Shown here: piece by piece, positions 1 through 7,153 of the stretch
Numbering within the stretch: the stretch's first letter is position 1
Layout: each line of letters begins with the position of its first letter
DNA from: a virus
Lineage: Duplodnaviria > Heunggongvirae > Uroviricota > Caudoviricetes
Virus record (IMG/VR): IMGVR_UViG_2657245112_000033
Direction: 5' to 3' (one strand)
Length of the DNA: 7,153 bases
Translations under genes and position numbers: made by a program
The notes under the pieces: model-generated
What the model was told of the DNA's origin: nothing
Databases searched by the model: none
What the model saw: the letters and a program-made list of their open reading frames with translations, nothing else

Positions 1-162
1 TAGCTATAAATACATCTAAATACCTATATCCCTTCCCTTATGGCTAGATTGCGAGAAGTGCTTAACGCGATTTTCAGCGCCCCCCGATCTGGAAAATCCA
101 GAATCCCCAAATATCAGCAAGGAATTTTCTTGCGTAATCAACATCGTTTTTACCTATTAAAT

Positions 163-189
163 CATTACACAGAAAGCCTTTCTGTAATG
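163..189. repeat. Near-palindromic site carrying the ATTACACAG motif (ATTACACAGAAAG-c-CTTTCTGTAAT)
   Basis: 12-bp arms are reverse complements apart from one bulged base. The left arm contains the same ATTACACAG motif that recurs through 505-1900. Confidence 0.6.
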
Positions 190-442
190 TCTCTCACTAA
201 ACTTTCACTAAACACGAGAATGATCGGTTTTATGTCGGATCAGATGCTAGAAACAGCACCACGTCTCACAAGGGCTGTAAGCGATGAAACCAGTGTTTAT
301 GCGGGTGCAGGTCAAAATATAGGCCAAAATCCATTTAACATAATAATCGTAATATGCACTAAGGAACACATAGAACGCCTTGAGTTGATGTATCAGGGGA
401 AAAGTGATGGATTTTTTACGTAGGAGCACGAGAGGGCTTCTG

Positions 443-2001: not shown

Positions 2002-2515
2002 TTATTAATAATATCTTTATAAGCTCTGTGTAGCTCTCTGACGCAAGAAACAGCATTCAGGAAGGGAATCACCTTAGAAAAGTGTTCTTTGCGTCATAAT
2101 GTGTTTTATGAAGGATTCAGAGGTGTTTCATAACAGAGATGTATAGAGGATACTTTAGGTAATTAAAAATAAGGGGTCTAAATGCTTCTCTAACAACATT
2201 AAGCAGGGTAGGGAATGGAAACGCATTGCCTACATATAATAAACTCACTACAGGGCTTTACAGAGCGTTTTATAAAGTGACTCTCTGTTTTATATCTATC
2301 ATCATCTAACAAATACAAAATAAGCCACTTAAATAAGCCTCTGGCGAGCTAAACAGCCATTAGATAAGGGAATGTATTGCTTTTATCAAAATCTCGTTAG
2401 AACGCGTTTTAGAGCGTTTTAGACAATAAGGAAGAATAGCACTACATAGGAGAGCACGAATTGCTAAGAAAAAATGTAAGTGCATGAAAAAGATCAGATT
2501 TTTTATGAAAAGGTA

Positions 2516-2544
2516 TTGACAAATGTTTCTTTATATGTAATAAT
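2516..2544 (+). promoter_or_regulatory. Sigma70-like promoter with extended -10 (TTGACA-17 bp-TGt-AATAAT), probable promoter of the 2656-4950 operon
   Basis: TTGACA at 2516-2521, TG at 2536-2537, AATAAT at 2539-2544. The leader downstream contains a short hairpin (aagcc-gtca-ggctt, 2603-2616) and a T-run at 2625-2635 before the first ribosome-binding site. Confidence 0.55.
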
Positions 2545-2655
2545 AGGTATTAGAGGGACAGAAAAACATTCTTCTCTAAATAATCAAAATCAATGCACTT
2601 TGAAGCCGTCAGGCTTGCAAGGTGTTTTTTCTTTTAACTGAATAAGGAGTTTTTT

Positions 2656-2844
2656 ATGAAATGGTTTACACCTGAGCACGTCGTCCAGGCATTTAAAAAA
2701 GGTGAGCTTACACGCCACCAAGTAGTAATGAATCGTAATATGGCAAGGAGTCGAGGTTATCCAGAGCGAGCAGCTTGCTTCAATGAAGCACTCAAGATTA
2801 TTGATGAACTAAGAAAAAATGAAAAAGAATCTGAAACAGAGTAA
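2656..2844 (+). CDS. Hypothetical small protein (62 aa)
   Basis: ATG at 2656 preceded by AAGGAG (2644-2649); first gene after the predicted promoter; no family recognised. Confidence 0.6.
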   Translation: MKWFTPEHVVQAFKKGELTRHQVVMNRNMARSRGYPERAACFNEALKIIDELRKNEKESETE

Positions 2845-2863
2845 AGAAGAGAAGGAGAAAACT

Positions 2864-3034
2864 ATGAGCGAAACTACAGAAAAGAAAAGACAACCACGCA
2901 CTTGCTTTCATATTCCTGATGAAGTATTTCAGGTGTTATTTAAAGAAGCCAGAAGTAGACGGATCACTGTCACAGATTACATTCTTGATATGTTGAAAAG
3001 AGAGGCTGAAACACTCTCAAATAAAAGCAAGTGA
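2864..3034 (+). CDS. Ribbon-helix-helix-like (CopG/Arc-type) small DNA-binding protein, about 56 aa
   Basis: The track ORF is 2819-3034, but the ATG at 2864 has an AAGGAG site (2852-2857) and lies after the upstream stop (2842-2844), while 2819 has none. The segment RTCFHIPDEVFQVLFKEARSRRITVTDYILDMLKRE fits a strand-helix-helix pattern. Confidence 0.5.
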   Translation: MSETTEKKRQPRTCFHIPDEVFQVLFKEARSRRITVTDYILDMLKREAETLSNKSK

Positions 3035-3087
3035 TTTTTATCACCATAGTAGCGCCATAGAGCGTGATTACATCAAGGAGATTTTTA

Positions 3088-3780
3088 ATGATTAACCAAC
3101 TAACTTTTACAAAACACTATGACACGTTTGATAATGTATCAAAGATTTATTCTGATAAATTCCCTCAAGGAAAAGATTTAGATCTATTACATATTGTGCT
3201 TTATTTTCGATTCCTTAGTTATCAGGAAAACAACCTTAATTGTTATGAAAGTCACGAAACATTAGCTAAGATTTTTAAGTCTTCAGCGTCAACAATTAAA
3301 CGTAAGATAAACGATCTTAAAGAGATGGGATTATTAGAAACATCCCCACATCCTGATCCGTATATTTCATCTTTGATTTACAATGCTCTCCCTCTCACAG
3401 ATGCACATATTACTCCCCCAGGAGAATCATCACTCTCTGATCTTTCTGAGGCAGAAGAAGCACAGGAACAACCTAAAGGCCATAAACAGCCTTCTTTTGA
3501 TGTTCTTGATGATGATTGGGATACGCCTTTACCGTGGGAGACGGAAGAAACACCTGTTTCATCAAGTGAAAAGGTAGCTAATGATAATGAGGAGGATGTG
3601 TTAAAGAATTTTGCCTCTCTTATTATCAAGCAGAAGAATACTAGAACAGGAGGAGCATCATTTATAGAATTTGCAACATCGTTAGCCTATAAGCACAGGT
3701 TAAAGCTACCAAATGGTATTGAGGCATATTTTGCTAAGAAACATCCCAAAGTATACGAAGACTTTGATATTCCATTTTAA
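3088..3780 (+). CDS. Winged-HTH-like DNA-binding protein with acidic C-terminal region ending in an SSB-tail-like DFDIPF; possible replication initiator or organiser
   Basis: The track ORF starts at GTG 3064; the in-frame ATG at 3088 has AAGGAG at 3075-3080 with a 7-nt spacer. The N-terminal part (LHIVLYFRFLSYQENNLNCYESHETLAKIFKSSASTIKRKINDLKEMGLLE) fits a winged-HTH pattern. The C-terminal half is acidic (DDDWDTPLPWETEE) and the last residues are EDFDIPF. Confidence 0.7.
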   Translation: MINQLTFTKHYDTFDNVSKIYSDKFPQGKDLDLLHIVLYFRFLSYQENNLNCYESHETLAKIFKSSASTIKRKINDLKEMGLLETSPHPDPYISSLIYNALPLTDAHITPPGESSLSDLSEAEEAQEQPKGHKQPSFDVLDDDWDTPLPWETEETPVSSSEKVANDNEEDVLKNFASLIIKQKNTRTGGASFIEFATSLAYKHRLKLPNGIEAYFAKKHPKVYEDFDIPF

Positions 3781-4111: not shown

Positions 4112-4231
4112 ATGATAGTAGCTATGTATTGGTTATTGTTCTTTCTCACGTTAGAAACATACTTCGGGGTGTTTTCCTTTAAAAGAAAAGGAAAAGTAAA
4201 TAATGGCAAAAAGAAAAAACAACGTTGTTAA
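4112..4231 (+). CDS. Candidate small hydrophobic peptide (39 aa, MIVAMYWLLFFLTLETYFGVFSFKRKGKVNNGKKKKQRC)
   Basis: Not in the ORF track because it is under 60 aa. ATG at 4112 with AAAAGGA (4096-4102) upstream. One hydrophobic segment followed by a lysine/arginine-rich tail. Its 3' end overlaps the start of the next gene out of frame. Confidence 0.25.
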   Translation: MIVAMYWLLFFLTLETYFGVFSFKRKGKVNNGKKKKQRC

Positions 4232-4613
4232 GAAAATCGGGGATTCAGCTTCTCTTCTAAGTAAACCTAAATCTATTCTAAGACGCAAAGACTTTAAAGA
4301 GCTAGTTACGCTCACCAAGCAAAATAGCGCCCCTGGCGAATGGAAAACAGAGATCATAGAACATTCTCCCTCTGTGCCTTGCGGAGATGAATTTAACGCC
4401 TTACAAGAAATCTTATCTTCAACACCTGGCGTATTCTGGAAACCTAGAAAAAGAAAAGAGTATATCGTTGATAGCTCTGATTTACGCAAATACCAGATTT
4501 TAGGATTTGAAGACTATAACCACTACGTTGGTTATCTCGCCACAAATGGCCTAAATAACTTAGTTCCAGACTTCCAGATTCTAGATAATGCTGATCACTA
4601 TGGAGACTTTTAA
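4203..4613 (+). CDS. Hypothetical protein (136 aa) with basic N-terminus
   Basis: ATG at 4203 with AAGGA (4188-4192) upstream; the N-terminus MAKRKNNVVKK is basic; no family recognised. Confidence 0.6.
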   Translation: MAKRKNNVVKKIGDSASLLSKPKSILRRKDFKELVTLTKQNSAPGEWKTEIIEHSPSVPCGDEFNALQEILSSTPGVFWKPRKRKEYIVDSSDLRKYQILGFEDYNHYVGYLATNGLNNLVPDFQILDNADHYGDF

Positions 4614-4614
4614 T

Positions 4615-4950
4615 ATGAACAAAAACACGTATGACACAATTTACTCACTAATTAATTATTATGAGGATGATTACCTTCTGCCTTTAAACCGCGCTGAACT
4701 TGAAGCATACAAAGAAAACACACCAGCGTCACTAAATGAGGCGTTTAAACACTGGGATTTAGCTGTGAATGCCTTTGAGCACCTCTCTAAGCGTGTAGAG
4801 ATGCTCTGTAAGCGCGAAAACGCATACCTGACAGCCGATCAGATATGGGAGCTATCAAACTGGATAGAAGATATCGAATCTGATGTTCGCTATGTGGGAG
4901 ATGGACTTGTCGAACTCGCTCAACGCTTAGGCACTATCACAGAAGAATAA
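4615..4950 (+). CDS. Hypothetical protein (about 111 aa)
   Basis: The track ORF starts at 4588. In-frame ATGs at 4600 and 4615; the one at 4615 follows GGAG (4602-4605) and the upstream stop (4611-4613), so 4615 is preferred but uncertain. Confidence 0.55.
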   Translation: MNKNTYDTIYSLINYYEDDYLLPLNRAELEAYKENTPASLNEAFKHWDLAVNAFEHLSKRVEMLCKRENAYLTADQIWELSNWIEDIESDVRYVGDGLVELAQRLGTITEE

Positions 4951-4979
4951 AAAAAGCAACAAAAAAGTTGTAAAATATC

Positions 4980-5008
4980 TTGACATTCCATCTATTATAT
5001 GTTAATAT
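4980..5008 (+). promoter_or_regulatory. Sigma70-like promoter with extended -10 (TTGACA-17 bp-TGt-TAATAT)
   Basis: TTGACA at 4980-4985, TG at 5000-5001, TAATAT at 5003-5008. Same architecture as the promoter at 2516-2544. Confidence 0.5.
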
Positions 5009-5146
5009 AATTATATGGGGTGATTATTTTTCCTTTATTGGTTCGATATTAAAAATTCTTCTTGTCGTTAAAGGGGAGTAAAATCTCCGCTCCCCGCTTC
5101 TCCTCCTTAAGTAAATACTGTGTCATTATTACCTCTTTTTTCCTTT

Positions 5147-5176
5147 GTTATGCATACATCTTGGAGTATGCATAAC
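5147..5176. promoter_or_regulatory. Perfect 11-bp inverted repeat GTTATGCATAC-N8-GTATGCATAAC (operator-like)
   Basis: Arms at 5147-5157 and 5166-5176 are exact reverse complements. The half-site GTTATGCA recurs at 5242-5249 next to a second small inverted repeat (caactt-aa-aagttg, 5248-5261). Confidence 0.6.
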
Positions 5177-5205
5177 ATAGGGTAATTACATAGGTACAAG
5201 TTAAT

Positions 5206-5238
5206 AAAAGGCGGCTCTAAATGCTGCCTTTTATTTTG
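5206..5238. terminator. Rho-independent terminator hairpin, possibly bidirectional
   Basis: aaaaggcggc (5206-5215), loop tctaaat, gctgcctttt (5223-5232): about a 10-bp stem with one G-U pair, followed by ttttatttt. The A-run upstream gives a matching U-run on the opposite strand. Confidence 0.6.
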
Positions 5239-5299
5239 CCCGTTATGCAACTTAAAAGTTGTATTTCTTACTTTAAACAAGGTAACAAGGTTTATATAA

Positions 5300-5512
5300 A
5301 TGTTGTTCTTAAATGATAAAGAGCAAATCATCAAGTATAAAGATGAAATGCTGAAAATAAATCCACAAATTACCGAAATGGTAGCTAAATACGCTGGGTG
5401 TTCTGTAGAAGAAGTAGAAAGATGTGTTGAAAAATATTTTTCTCCTTCTTCTCCGTCTACACCTTCCCTTAATGAATTAATCAAATTAAAAGCTAAGGAG
5501 ATTACTAAATGA
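5300..5512 (+). CDS. Hypothetical small protein (70 aa)
   Basis: Its stop overlaps the next start (ATGA at 5509-5512), suggesting translational coupling. Weak ribosome-binding site (aagg near 5288). Contains a Ser/Pro-rich segment SPSSPSTPS. Confidence 0.5.
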   Translation: MLFLNDKEQIIKYKDEMLKINPQITEMVAKYAGCSVEEVERCVEKYFSPSSPSTPSLNELIKLKAKEITK

Positions 5513-5871
5513 TTATTGATTTAGACACTCTGTTTCCAGTTCGAAAGACTTTCACAGATATTGTAAGTTATTGTACTGATCCGTTTGCCTCTGTAGAAAG
5601 CAAGGTTTTTGCTTCTCTTCCTGCTGATGTTGAATGCGGCGACTTGATCACCAGCACTGGCGCTAAATATGTATCAGGAGATGATATCTATGTTGTTATG
5701 AGTGAATTTGTAACGGCTGGAGAAAACAAACCTGTAGATGTTTTACGTAGCAATGCTGGGCTTGTATGCATCAAAGCTGATGCGCTGAATGCTGTAAGTG
5801 AAGCAGCAAAAACAGCATTAATTAAAAAAGGCTTCCAGCTTGAAGGGTTCCATTCTGTTTTCACTTCTTAA
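5509..5871 (+). CDS. Putative head decoration or accessory head protein (120 aa), assigned by position only
   Basis: AAGGAG at 5495-5500, ATG at 5509. It sits immediately upstream of the major capsid gene, where lambda has gpD, but I see no clear sequence similarity to gpD. Confidence 0.55.
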   Translation: MIIDLDTLFPVRKTFTDIVSYCTDPFASVESKVFASLPADVECGDLITSTGAKYVSGDDIYVVMSEFVTAGENKPVDVLRSNAGLVCIKADALNAVSEAAKTALIKKGFQLEGFHSVFTS

Positions 5872-5889: not shown

Positions 5890-6918
5890 ATGATTCTAGG
5901 CAATGATTACGTTGATTTGATCCCTCTGTTCCAGACACACAGCACGCGTAACTTCCTGCTCTCTACTCTTGATTTTACGGATTCTGTAGGGGTTACATCT
6001 CATAAAGTAGCTGTTTCCCAGCTTGTCGAAAGCAACGAATCTCTCTTTAACAAAGAGACAAGCCGTTTTAGTTCTGAACACAATGTTACTAAGCGAGAAC
6101 AAGGTAAAGAATGGCTGATCGAGATCCCTTACTTCCTGCGTGAAGATGTGATCCGTCCTTCTGATGTTCAAGGCAAACGTAAACCTGGCACTGATTTCCA
6201 GGAAACACTCACTGATATTTATGCGGAATATATCGCTAAACACCACGTAGCGTATCAGCGTACAAAAGAGAGCGTATTGGCTGCTTCTTTGTTCTCGGGC
6301 AAAACTTATACACCGAAAACTGATGATGTTCTTATCGAATGGGGCAAGCTGTTTAACGTATCAGCTATGAAAGCCACTGTGAACGCTTCCAGCACTGACA
6401 CCACGAAGATTTTTAAAGAATTTGATCAGATTGCTACTGACATTATCGAGAAAGCACAAAGCCAGGCGTCTGCTGTAGAGCGTATTGTTGTTTTCTGTAA
6501 ACCTGAAGCCTTCTCCGCAATTCGATTCTCTGCTGGTATGGCAAACGCATTCCAGTATGTAAGCCCACTGGAAGAGGGGAACGTTGTGTATCAGCGTCGT
6601 GACCTGCTGCCAGGGGTGACAGCGTTCACTATCCCAGGAACTAACATTGATGTTGTTAAACTGGTAGATCCGCTACACCTTGCACATATGACTTCTGATG
6701 CGGTTGCGATTCCGAAGTTTGCTAAAGGCTCTAATGTATATCAGAACATCTACGGGGCTGCTTCCAGCACTTTTGAACTGATCAATGCCGCTCCTGCTGA
6801 GGTGTATAGCTATAGCTATGAATCTTCTCGTGGTGATGCTGTTAACGTTGTTACAGAGAATAGCCAGATGGTTGTAAACCACGGTGTAGGCTTCTCCGTT
6901 CAAATCACTGTTAAATAA
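5890..6918 (+). CDS. Major capsid protein, lambda gpE family (342 aa)
   Basis: AAGGAA ribosome-binding site before ATG 5890. Length matches gpE (341 aa). Several segments resemble my recollection of lambda gpE: SVLAASLFSGKTYTPKTD vs AVSAVLKGKYTMTGE, ASAVERIVVFCKPEAFSAIRFS vs ASGVVNIIVFDPKGWALFRSF, DLLPGVTAFTIPG vs NFLPDNTMVLG, and C-terminal GFSVQITVK vs EFVSVQLA. Recalled, not aligned. Confidence 0.85.
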   Translation: MILGNDYVDLIPLFQTHSTRNFLLSTLDFTDSVGVTSHKVAVSQLVESNESLFNKETSRFSSEHNVTKREQGKEWLIEIPYFLREDVIRPSDVQGKRKPGTDFQETLTDIYAEYIAKHHVAYQRTKESVLAASLFSGKTYTPKTDDVLIEWGKLFNVSAMKATVNASSTDTTKIFKEFDQIATDIIEKAQSQASAVERIVVFCKPEAFSAIRFSAGMANAFQYVSPLEEGNVVYQRRDLLPGVTAFTIPGTNIDVVKLVDPLHLAHMTSDAVAIPKFAKGSNVYQNIYGAASSTFELINAAPAEVYSYSYESSRGDAVNVVTENSQMVVNHGVGFSVQITVK

Positions 6919-6958
6919 TATTTAACGTGTAATAGAGGCGTGGCGCTGAGAGATCCCC

Positions 6959-7153
6959 TCATAATTTCCCCAAAGCGTAACCATGTGTGAATAAATTTTG
7001 AGCTAGTAGGGTTGCAGCCACGAGTAAGTCTTCCCTTGTTATTGTGTAGCCAGAATGCCGCAAAACTTCCATGCCTAAGCGAACTGTTGAGAGTACGTTT
7101 CGATTTCTGACTGTGTTAGCCTGGAAGTGCTTGTCCCAACCTTGTTTCTGAGC
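6959..7153 (-). CDS. Possible 3' end of a convergent gene running off the window (C-terminal 64 codons, unknown function)
   Basis: The minus-strand frame entering at 7153 is open for 64 codons (...GMEVLRHSGYTITREDLLVAATLLAQNLFTHGYALGKL) and stops at 6959-6961. It is absent from the track because no Met start lies in the window. The composition is protein-like, but a chance open frame is not excluded. Confidence 0.3.
   Translation of the reverse strand, partial: AQKQGWDKHFQANTVRNRNVLSTVRLGMEVLRHSGYTITREDLLVAATLLAQNLFTHGYALGKL

Follow-up and report, generated by a model that had tools for sequence, protein, structure and literature searches.

The 349-bp gap between the early genes and the head genes of this island has, in our estimation, an even chance of being a satellite's transcriptional gate at its early/late boundary, set either to a terminated leader RNA or to read-through. 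The arrangement of promoter, leader RNA, terminator and head genes is, as judged by sequence comparison, the most conserved architectural feature of the element family and, since it is kept in every relative, expression of the capsid probably depends on reading through the terminator.

According to the proposed mechanism, in the resting island the polymerase leaving the promoter at 4980–5008 would halt at the terminator and free a short structured RNA, and polymerase coming from the early operon, itself without a terminator, would halt at the same place. Activation by a helper phage would make the polymerase resistant to termination, or termination would be overridden otherwise, and the capsid and tail-related genes would be turned on. 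The opening factor, not a recognisable relative of lambda Q, could be one of the island's small early proteins or a function supplied by the helper phage. The short RNA might have a second job in trans, via CCUCC(UUA) loops.

Satellites need their morphogenesis genes to be silent until the helper arrives. The known routes to this silencing are protein repressors (SaPIs and PICIs), late activators of the helper (P4) and antisense RNA (P4 CI). Here, a different device is found at the early/late boundary of every family member, in which a structured RNA lies between a strong promoter and a terminator. Should the gate model prove true, it would offer a testable handle on capsid timing in a satellite of virulent myoviruses and point to an antitermination factor, and the long covarying leaders of the relatives would represent new structured RNAs, absent from Rfam.

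The island and its probable helpers

The window, the whole stretch of 7,153 nucleotides analysed here, is part of an island of about 12.4 kb located at a tRNA-Thr gene (thrW) of E. coli O111:H11, which looks like a phage satellite with its own capsid, tape-measure-like and Dit-like genes. Its gene set comprises small early ORFs, an HTH_36 rep-like gene, a gpE-type capsid gene and the tape-measure-like and Dit-like genes, with the integrase at the far end; portal, terminase and protease genes were neither annotated nor detected in the island. Upstream of the rep-like gene, the island has copied a 5′ untranslated region of the helper. No recognisable protein repressor was found in the ORF list or with Pfam and PHROGs.

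P4 is characterised by sid, psu, delta and primase; PICIs by int beside alpA and pri-rep; and capsid-forming PICIs by an HK97 capsid with portal, protease and terminase. Compared with the descriptions of these families, the island has the typical gene set of neither P4-like, PICI, capsid-forming PICI nor PLE satellites. It appears to be an undescribed kind of satellite, encoding a capsid, a tape-measure homologue and a Dit-like protein, and no description of the element family was found in the literature. About 6% of complete E. coli genomes carry a member of the family, as do many Klebsiella, Citrobacter and Enterobacter.

The island capsid presents 24–27% identity to the capsids of large virulent myoviruses, and its tape-measure homologue 35–37% identity to the tape-measure proteins of Stephanstirmvirinae. 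From these similarities, the probable helpers are large virulent Stephanstirmvirinae myoviruses and not lambdoid phages. Two assignments were rejected: positions 43–88 of the window are not a tRNA-derived att remnant, the sole thrW repeat being at 23299–23317 of locus L001, and the island is not the same element as that at thrW of O157 Sakai, so the published Sakai RNA maps are not applicable.

Elements of the gap

Every sequence element listed in the initial annotation of this DNA was found in place; the features are collected in Table 1. All genes from 2656 through the capsid gene lie on one strand.

Table 1. Coordinates, strand and basis of the features in and around the gap
Feature	Position	Strand	Basis and details
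136-aa early protein	4203..4613	+	ORF list; family kept in most relatives
111-aa acidic helical protein, last early gene	4615..4950	+	ORF list
H_up, small hairpin/palindrome	4956..4972	+	GCAAC-AAAAAA-GTTGTA; pattern count, clade comparison
Sigma-70 promoter, extended -10	4980..5008	+	TTGACA, 17-nt spacer, TG-n-TAATAT
Non-coding leader RNA / sRNA, predicted, ~222 nt	5015..5237	+	Start placed 7 nt past the -10, at the A of A-U-GGGG
Hairpin A	5073..5095	+	GGGGAGU / GCUCCCC, loop AAAAUCUCC; in MFE and centroid folds
C-rich anti-Shine-Dalgarno-like element	5096..5112	+	UCCUCCUUAA at 5101–5110, weak hairpin loop (GCUU/AAGU stem)
Palindromic hairpin, 16-nt arms, 8-nt loop	5142..5181	+	Inverted-repeat scan, predicted fold
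Intrinsic terminator	5203..5237	+	13-bp stem, GC core GGCGGC/GCUGCC, U-run UUUUAUUUU
H_post, hairpin past the terminator	5245..5264	+	AUGCAACU-UAAA-AGUUGUAU; second GCAAC-N6-GTTGTA copy (5247–5263)
Translation initiation region, first head-module gene	5276..5302	+	Tandem AACAAGGT x2, ATG at 5300
70-aa protein, first gene past the terminator	5300..5512	+	ORF list; kept in all clades
120-aa head-module protein	5509..5871	+	ORF list
Major capsid protein, lambda gpE-type family	5890..6918	+	PF03864, E=1e-14

The promoter first proposed at 4980–5008 matches the sigma-70 consensus at 10/12 positions (-35 at 4980–4985, -10 at 5003–5008, TG at 5000–5001). The consensus search returned 15 promoter-like sites against 22 expected in shuffles, so a match alone is not beyond chance, and the site is credible because it is conserved: the -35 is invariant in the 35 distinct sequences of the window's clade, the TG and -10 present a diversity of 0.013 against 0.05–0.10 at third codon positions of the flanking genes, and a promoter with at least 9/12 matches occupies the equivalent place in 87/87 distinct relatives. 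The head genes, which follow the terminator as had been claimed, have no sigma-70 promoter of their own, and the sigma-70 scan returned no promoter-like site in 5238–5299. A T4-type late promoter, TATAAAT at 5295–5301, was rejected, since it runs into the start codon and other clades lack it.

The strong terminator of the initial annotation was confirmed as a GC-containing hairpin followed directly by a U-run, with 13-nt arms (5203–5215/5223–5235) that are 92% complementary, a 7-nt loop, a T-run to 5237 and a dG of -17.3 kcal/mol. A relaxed scan of the 7.15-kb window found no other strong terminator on the + strand; this one had escaped a stock scanner, since its stem runs on into A/T pairs. 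Being symmetric, it could work on both strands. Its core is kept in all variants of the window's clade, including the forms with a 17-nt deletion, and no alternative antiterminator pairing was seen for its 5′ arm.

The transcript is predicted to run from about 5015 to about 5237, close to 222 nt, with its start site, termination efficiency and read-through all deduced from the sequence. Its coding content is just a 2-codon ORF, and its fold is more stable than those of shuffled sequences on both strands (z = -6.4 on + and -4.4 on -). The search of the window against Rfam 15 (E<=1) gave only a spurious SurA match, of 16 bits against a gathering score of 100, and that of seven relatives returned tRNAs and no other RNA family.

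Within this RNA, the segments GGGGAG (5073–5078), CTCC (5085–5088) and CTCCCC (5090–5095) had been read as two mutually exclusive hairpins. The segments are present and the fold pairs GGGGAGU with GCUCCCC in Hairpin A, whose diversity is 0.0025 in the 35 sequences; the GGAG/CUCC alternative has just 4 bp, and no sign of a switch between the two was seen. The perfect 11-bp inverted repeat noticed at 5147–5176 (arms 5147–5157/5166–5176) is real and extends to 16 nt at 94% (5142–5157/5166–5181). The smaller palindrome, GCAAC-N6-GTTGTA, occurs exactly twice in the window, against 0.14 expected. Its upstream copy, H_up, lies 7 nt before the -35, or 9 nt if the distance is taken from the 14-bp core CAAC-N6-GTTG (4957–4970), and clade C has TAAC-ATAAAA-GTTA at the same distance. 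The downstream copy is contained in H_post.

Natural variants of these palindromes are G-U wobble substitutions that keep the RNA pairing, and for this reason they appear to behave as RNA hairpins rather than as the operators that they were first taken for. In the 5142–5181 hairpin (diversity 0.017), A5168G in 15/35 sequences changes U-A to U-G and leaves the dG of -21.3 unchanged; in H_post, G5247A in 7/35 changes G-U to A-U. Substitutions of the wobble type are found in three hairpins of the window's clade, H_post among them. The repeated half-site GTTATGCA is present, as described, at 5147–5154 and 5242–5249, but an operator role for it was not upheld, the second copy being GTTATACA in the 7/35 clade members in which the substitution destroys the half-site. 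One clade A variant of H_up, GCAAT..GTTGC, keeps its pairing via a double change, and the equivalent of H_post in clades C/E, TAAC-N6-GTTA, is 99% paired with two compensatory pairs. A hairpin of the RNA type downstream of the terminator would imply that read-through transcripts are made.

In the window's clade, diversity is 0 to 0.02 in the promoter, Hairpin A, the palindrome hairpin, H_post and the start region (0.002 in the translation initiation region, 35 sequences), compared with 0.05–0.10 at codon position 3 and 0.19–0.30 in the linkers.

Leaders of the relatives and competing explanations

The order promoter, RNA, terminator, hairpin and ribosome site is kept in all 87 distinct relatives examined. 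A gene-free gap of 329–1087 nt is present in all of about 95 loci, and the leaders range from about 220 to about 950 nt with almost no common sequence. The terminator has an equivalent in the same position in 84/87 distinct relatives and a long-loop version in the remaining 3; it stands 13–87 nt (median 65) before the ATG, and about 62 nt in the window. The leaders start with TA(t/a)(A/G)GGG in all clades, and those of clades C/E share with the window the whole framing of promoter, A-GGG start, terminator, hairpin and ribosome site. In the 60–90 nt past the terminator, no common motif was found across clades besides this hairpin and the ribosome site.

No match at E<1e-3 was found by blastn between the gap of the window and those of other clades, and neither this gap nor that of one long relative matched any of 50,697 phage records. 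With the longer leaders, the window leader shares only the 10-mer UCCUCCUUAA and a bias for CUCC-type motifs. For leaders of other clades, the fold z values were -5.4, -9.6 and -7.6. RNAalifold on the full 885-column alignment gave fragments only because the leaders are mosaic, and the helices were therefore set by hand. Among 31 distinct clade C/E leaders, 45 pairs, hand- or alifold-derived, are 90% paired, against 37–53% with the partners slid; 17 pairs present double changes, and the covariation score was reached by 0/500 shuffles. The boxA-like CGCTCTTTA of clade C leaders proved to be an arm of a covarying hairpin and not a conserved boxA. Selection on leader structure in the relatives exceeds what a passive leader needs, which hints at another or an additional function.

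A broader reading of these data is possible, and we consider it doubtful: the promoter-to-terminator stretch would be the shortest in a new class of non-coding RNAs, modular and highly structured (220–950 nt), exclusive to the early/late boundary of an undescribed enterobacterial family of satellites of virulent Stephanstirmvirinae. Their loops would mimic the 16S 3′ end (CCUCCUUA) and the RNA would act as a switch, which at rest binds Shine-Dalgarno regions to hold early or late genes off; on infection, a helper or satellite factor would turn the same locus into a leader that is read through into the capsid, tape-measure and Dit genes.

The leader CCUCC(UUA) loops are identical to the 3′ end of 16S rRNA, and through them the leader RNA may act also in trans. 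In clade A and in some of clade C, each locus has a single copy of the 10-mer UCCUCCUUAA, which invariably lies in the leader; in clade C it forms the loop of a conserved hairpin. CCTCC and CTCCT rank within the top 4 of all 1024 5-mers for enrichment in leaders and are present in all clades, while GGAGG is absent from the leaders of all of them. In addition, the loop AAAAUCUCC (5080–5088) and GGAGAUUUU, which lies at the ribosome site of the rep-like gene, are complementary, and L037-type islands have a leader with a 16-nt perfect antisense match to an early-gene start region (family-wise p=0.003).

These observations would also speak for a stand-alone gene for a trans-acting regulatory RNA, for immunity or control as with P4 CI and P1 C4, or a Shine-Dalgarno sponge, with the terminator as its 3′ end. 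It would be the sole obviously constitutive sigma-70 unit in an island with no recognisable protein repressor, and such a role would be compatible with a dual one as in StxS or IsrK. We nevertheless regard it as unlikely to be the primary role of the unit. In the window, the best antisense match to the island start regions, at the start of the rep-like gene, is not significant after correction (family-wise p=0.105), nor is that of 10/11 other representatives tested; for sequestration of the head-gene ribosome sites, the duplex energies are no better than those of shuffles (z = +0.4 to +0.9); no C4, CI or other Rfam family is matched; and the RNA-type hairpin kept past the terminator is left unexplained.

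The conservation of H_post and of the start region, which is extreme, would suit a reading in which the terminator serves just to close off the early operon and to form the end of the small RNA, and the head genes are transcribed from a helper-specific, non-sigma-70 promoter in 5238–5299. Large virulent myoviruses, which are the probable helpers, commonly redirect transcription, and the island already has a copied helper 5′ untranslated region in front of its rep-like gene. We consider this improbable: the 5238–5299 stretch has no similarity to any phage record, only the hairpin and the ribosome site are common to the clades past the terminator, and H_post varies like an RNA helix, which would confine a start site to within about 8 nt of the U-run.

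It is quite improbable that the palindromes are operators at the DNA level, bound by a repressor or activator of the island, such as an Arc-like protein of 56–71 aa, that controls the promoter or loops the DNA of 4956–5263. The two copies of GCAAC-N6-GTTGTA flank the unit, the fixed distance to the -35 is found in two divergent clades with half-sites changed in step (CAAC/GTTG and TAAC/GTTA), and the ORF at 2819–3034 has a weak Arc-like match. On the other hand, the variants tolerate G-U and U-G, so that DNA symmetry is broken and RNA pairing kept; neither palindrome overlaps the promoter core and the big 16-nt one sits at +127 to +166; the two flanking hairpins are mutually unrelated in clades B and D; and the upstream and downstream copies differ in locus L005.

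The initial annotation had compared the gap with the lambdoid pR'-tR' unit and proposed that either upstream gene could encode the regulator. The layout withstood our analysis, and the hairpin past the terminator argues for read-through, but the Q/lambdoid framing did not, and the lambda-Q analogy is one of layout only. That an upstream product is a Q-type antiterminator loading at the promoter is very improbable, even though the gene order (conserved small gene, strong promoter, ~200-nt RNA, terminator and late genes) matches Q-pR'-6S-tR' and GATTAT, a -10-like hexamer (4/6 match), is found at roughly +8 to +13. AT-rich DNA often contains such hexamers, and this one has no conserved equivalent in other clades. 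No Q-family similarity or other antiterminator candidate was identified for these proteins with Pfam, PHROGs, NCBIfam, PDB profiles or structure models. The 136-aa protein has tblastn matches in other clades and 387 homologues, and no match in Pfam, PHROGs, NCBIfam or PDB; its structure model was unusable for annotation (AF2 pLDDT 53). Its N-terminus is basic. In clades A, C, D and E, the gene for the 111-aa protein directly precedes the promoter. The AF2 model of this protein (pLDDT 77) is a plain three-helix bundle, a generic helical fold with no Foldseek PDB match at E<1; PDB profile searches with both proteins returned nothing. Moreover, its 77 loci form one family, which stands upstream of at least 5 different types of promoter spacer and upstream sequence, and the island context, with Stephanstirmvirinae as probable helpers, is not lambdoid.

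Hardly credible, finally, is a DNA-level packaging site (cos/pac) or replication origin in place of a transcription unit: the gap has several short direct repeats and lies between the replication and head modules, the typical position of pac/cos sites, but promoter and terminator are kept in all relatives while the intervening sequence turns over completely, folding differs between the strands and the bias in motifs is specific to one of them, the helices covary, and there is no similarity to any phage sequence.

Comparison with known systems

The lambda late unit is formed by the Q gene, the pR' promoter, the 6S RNA and the tR' terminator. The island gate proposed here resembles it in a small gene, a strong promoter that looks constitutive, a terminated RNA of about 200 nt and late genes without a promoter of their own. 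It differs in lacking both a Q-like protein and a conserved pause element near the promoter, in that the downstream genes are satellite head genes instead of the lysis genes of lambda, in its helpers, probably Stephanstirmvirinae, and in the leaders of the relatives, of 350–950 nt with covarying helices.

Antitermination by lambda N relies on this arginine-rich protein and on an RNA site, boxA plus boxB, that precedes the terminator. The succession of early genes, hairpin with A-rich loop (H_up), terminator and delayed genes resembles cro-nutR-tR1, with a second copy of the hairpin downstream; the hairpins at 4956–4972 and 5247–5263 are boxB-like, with 5 bp and an A-rich loop. However, their loops have 6 nt and not 5 nt, a complete promoter and RNA gene is placed between hairpin and terminator, and neither a boxA, searched by eye in the sequence, nor a recognisable N protein was seen.

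The antisense RNAs CI of P4 and C4 of P1 and P7 confer immunity. The island, as a satellite with no recognisable protein repressor, a small RNA predicted to be constitutive and, in one clade, antisense matches to start regions of early genes, is similar to these systems. It differs in having no Rfam match, in the place of the unit, which is before the head genes and not in the early leader, and in the antisense match of the window, which is not significant.

The arrangement proposed for the island, a short terminated RNA and a read-through isoform, is that of IsrK of prophage Gifsy-1, whose single promoter yields both a terminated short RNA and an mRNA made by read-through, with expression of the latter controlled by the former (PMC4825925). 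The two differ in that the island RNA has no Rfam match, in that antQ lies downstream in Gifsy-1 and head genes in the island, and in that complementarity of the island short RNA to the head-gene starts of its long transcript is not above chance. In Shiga-toxin phages, StxS is a short RNA that ends at the terminator of an always-active late promoter, within a Q-controlled lambdoid unit, and is itself regulatory (PMC7547250). Although StxS has no sequence or Rfam relationship to the island leader, by analogy a dual role may be possible for the island leader RNA.

Organization of the island and its probable helper phage

An E. coli O111:H11 chromosome is 100% identical to the window. The last ~200 bp of the window are a copy of IS10/ISVsa5, inserted after ~6945, just behind the capsid gene, and limited to this strain and one sister strain. 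By this insertion the tape-measure-like and Dit-like genes are cut off from the capsid gene. An uninterrupted island of ~12.4 kb, which contains the window, was found in strain E2865 (locus L001, 10932-23317). It extends from the 3′ end of thrW (tRNA-Thr) to a second, 19-nt copy of that end in direct orientation, adjoined by a tyrosine integrase at the far end of the island. Apart from the integrase, all island genes lie on the + strand. The gene set, in which no portal, terminase or protease was found, is judged to be that of a phage satellite, not of a phage. Literature searches returned no paper on this family, which appears to belong to no described kind of phage satellite. Hardly any genes are annotated in the left 3.7 kb of the island.

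Features of the window and of the adjoining island, with nucleotide diversity over 35 distinct clade-A sequences
Feature	Position	Strand	Diversity	Remarks
127-aa ORF	40-423			unannotated; kept in clade B
Phage-like patches	43-88; 3047-3095; 3384-3426
Promoter-like sites	443-470; 2516-2544			strong; the second is probably the early promoter
Conserved segments	728-1078; 2300-2650			clade A vs clade B
62-aa early ORF	2656-2844	+		conserved in most clades; faint NCBIfam match to 'RNA-binding regulator' model NF058537 (E=0.027, far below cut-off)
56-71-aa early ORF	after 62-aa ORF	+		weak Arc-like match
GGAGAUUUU	3076-3084			ribosome site of rep-like gene
HTH_36/replication-initiator-like (rep-like) protein	true start ATG 3088	+
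ORFs of 92, 136 and 111 aa	between rep-like gene and gap	+
Upstream hairpin	4956-4972
Promoter	4980-5008		0 (-35); 0.013 (TG and -10)
Leader RNA (inferred)	5015-5237		0.02 (5015-5072)
Hairpin A	5073-5095		0.0025	contains GGGGAG, CTCC and CTCCCC
UCCUCCUUAA	5101-5110
Palindromic hairpin	5142-5157 / 5166-5181		0.017
Terminator	5203-5215 / 5223-5235			T-run to 5237
GTTATGCA, second copy	5242-5249
Post-terminator hairpin	5245-5264		0.0125
Ribosome-site region			0.002
ORFs of 70 and 120 aa	directly after gap	+
Major capsid protein, lambda-gpE-type	after 120-aa ORF	+		PF03864, E=1e-14
IS10/ISVsa5 copy	~6946-7153
67-aa ORF	downstream of window, after capsid	+
Tape-measure homologue, 609 aa	downstream of window	+		phrog_16051, E=1e-54
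Dit-like tail protein	downstream of window	+		PF21821, E=3e-29

The stretch 4600-5520 is found in 308 of 5,426 complete E. coli genomes, and capsid homologues occur in Klebsiella, Citrobacter, Enterobacter, Kluyvera, Buttiauxella, Cronobacter, Serratia and Sodalis. The island capsid is at most 24-27% identical to any phage capsid, the matches being large virulent myoviruses, and the tape-measure homologue is 35-37% identical to its counterpart in Stephanstirmvirinae, represented here by the ~150-kb Phapecoctavirus/Justusliebigvirus myoviruses of E. coli. Three 40-50-bp patches of the window share 93-100% identity with the same phages. One of them (3047-3095) spans the start of the rep-like gene, from its 5′ untranslated region through the ribosome site to the start codon. 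Despite this near-identical DNA the phage homologue of the protein is only 33% identical, which suggests that the island has recombined with the probable helper or mimics it. On these matches, the helper is probably a phage of the Stephanstirmvirinae group, not a lambdoid one.

The promoter-leader-terminator unit and its relatives

The 349-bp gap (4951-5299) between the early and head genes contains no ORF longer than two codons. All elements placed there by the initial annotation were recovered: a promoter with TTGACA and TAATAT 17 nt apart and a TG upstream of the -10; a terminator formed by a 13-nt inverted repeat with a 7-nt loop (-17.3 kcal/mol); a perfect 11-nt inverted repeat, which extends to 16 nt at 94%; the second GTTATGCA copy; and the G- and C-rich segments of hairpin A. 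A promoter-like match by itself is unremarkable, given that the window is AT-rich (15 found vs 22 expected). The terminator was missed by the stock scan because its stem continues into A-U pairs; in a relaxed scan it was the only strong + strand terminator of the whole window, the early operon having none of its own.

Through alignment of capsid homologues, more than 100 related islands were fetched from genomes, metagenomes and IMG/VR. Every one has a gene-free gap between an ORF of ~100-120 aa and the 70-aa ORF that is the first gene of the head module. The gap measures 329-352 nt in clade A, which includes the window, about 990-1,090 nt in clade B, 560-750 nt in clades C and E, and 514-570 nt in clade D. 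A sigma-70 promoter (at least 9/12) is present at the 5′ end of all 87 distinct gaps, and a hairpin with a T-run near the 3′ end of 84, the other three having a long-loop version; the distance from the end of the stem to the start codon is 13-87 nt (median 65). Between terminator and ribosome site, relatives carry a small AT-rich hairpin. All clades share TA(t/a)(A/G)GGG downstream of the -10, and therefore the leader RNAs begin A(U)GGG. The sequence from promoter to terminator is not alignable between clades.

The RNA inferred for the window folds at -65.8 kcal/mol (z = -6.4; opposite strand, -4.4) and had no match in Rfam or phage records; nor did the relatives searched. The window RNA is the shortest version of the leader. 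Those of relatives (L005 8791-9337, L002 8458-9370, L081 5977-6325; alignment A2) are modular, 350-950 nt long, with covarying helices and the conserved loops AUUCGAAUC, UUUCCCAUAG and UCCUCCUUAA; their fold z values were -5.4 (349 nt), -9.6 (547 nt) and -7.6 (913 nt). Across 31 distinct clade C/E leaders, the 45 pairs of nine helices were 90% paired, vs 37-53% with partners slid; 17 pairs showed double changes, and none of 500 shuffles reached the covariation score. On this evidence, the leaders carried by relatives are genuine structured RNAs.

Proposed gating of the head genes and alternative roles of the leader

The order of promoter, RNA, terminator and head genes in the initial annotation stands, as does its likely gating role. 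In a resting island, polymerase from the gap promoter would stop at 5237 and release an RNA of ~222 nt, and polymerase arriving from the early operon would stop there too; upon helper infection termination would be overcome and the head, tape-measure-like and Dit-like genes expressed. The sequence itself shows a conserved strong promoter, a structured RNA that is not translated, the sole strong coding-strand terminator, an RNA-type hairpin past it and no promoter-like site ahead of the head genes. We give this terminated-leader gate about an even chance.

That the leader is primarily a trans-acting RNA, which is compatible with the gate, seems unlikely. In an unbiased 5-mer count, CTCCT and CCTCC rank in the top 4 of 1,024 words by enrichment in the leaders and are present in all five clades; GGAGG is absent from the leaders of every clade (0.1-2.8 expected per clade). 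Each locus of clade A and of part of clade C has a single copy of the 10-mer UCCUCCUUAA, always within the leader; in clade C it forms the loop of a conserved hairpin. Because CCUCCUUA is the 3′ end of E. coli 16S rRNA, leader loops could pair with Shine-Dalgarno sequences. Complementarity to head-gene start regions was no greater than in shuffles. The best match of the window leader is the start region of the rep-like gene (AAAAUCUCC vs GGAGAUUUU, family-wise p 0.105); GGAGAUUUU, complementary to the hairpin A loop, is also the integrase ribosome site (L001 23157-23165, - strand), with a third copy near L001 11694 (11694-11702, - strand). A clearly non-random antisense match was found only in L037-type islands, where leader positions 5733-5748 match 4764-4779, the ribosome site and start codon of a 73-aa early ORF (16 nt perfect, family-wise p=0.003), with more complementarity in the flanks. 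On these results, a trans role is possible, and unproven, in the window.

Expression of the head genes from a helper-specific promoter hidden behind the terminator is rather improbable.

Within clade A, third codon positions in the flanking genes have a diversity of 0.05-0.10, and two linkers of the gap, which have independent indels, one of 0.19-0.30. The few hairpin substitutions are RNA-type: A5168G (15/35) turns U-A into U-G in the palindromic hairpin with unchanged predicted energy; G5247A (7/35) turns G-U into A-U behind the terminator, keeping the pairing while destroying the proposed GTTATGCA half-site; and one sequence has GCAAU/GUUGC for GCAAC/GUUGU upstream of the promoter. These changes speak for RNA hairpins rather than protein operators, and the first reading of the palindromes as DNA operators is very improbable. 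With such a hairpin beyond the terminator, the region past 5237 must be transcribed, and read-through RNA would be part of the island biology.

GCAAC-N6-GTTGTA occurs exactly twice in the window (0.14 expected), at 4956, ending 7 nt before the -35 (9 nt from the core CAAC-N6-GTTG), and at 5247, behind the terminator. In those clade C islands whose promoter is related, TAAC-N6-GTTA stands at both places, at equal distance from the -35; no such likeness exists between the two hairpins of clades B and D. The pair looks like a shared recognition element, and the 62-aa early protein is a lead for its binder.

A Q-type regulator encoded directly upstream, as initially proposed, found no match in similarity or structure. 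The 111-aa gene forms a single family across clades A, C, D and E (77 loci), and the promoters behind it are of at least five types by spacer and upstream sequence; its product resembles no family or PDB entry, and its model (pLDDT 77) is an acidic three-helix bundle for which no structural neighbours were found. The 136-aa protein likewise has no recognisable identity, and its model is poor. With nothing in favour of a Q-type protein and a probable helper that is not lambdoid, the lambdoid framing is wrong or unsupported, and the literal lambda-Q model is barely tenable. A pac site or origin in the gap is the least credible reading.

Comparison with known systems

In lambda, boxB hairpins are placed before terminators. 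The flanking hairpins resemble them, although no boxA was seen and no N-like protein was found. The likeness to lambda Q-pR' is one of synteny, the 111-aa gene lying directly before the promoter. The gap unit varies a known regulatory design. The satellite family that carries it is apparently undescribed, and the units of the relatives are tied to long structured RNAs absent from Rfam. A dual role as trans-acting RNA and gate would be comparable to StxS (PMC7547250) and IsrK (PMC4825925).
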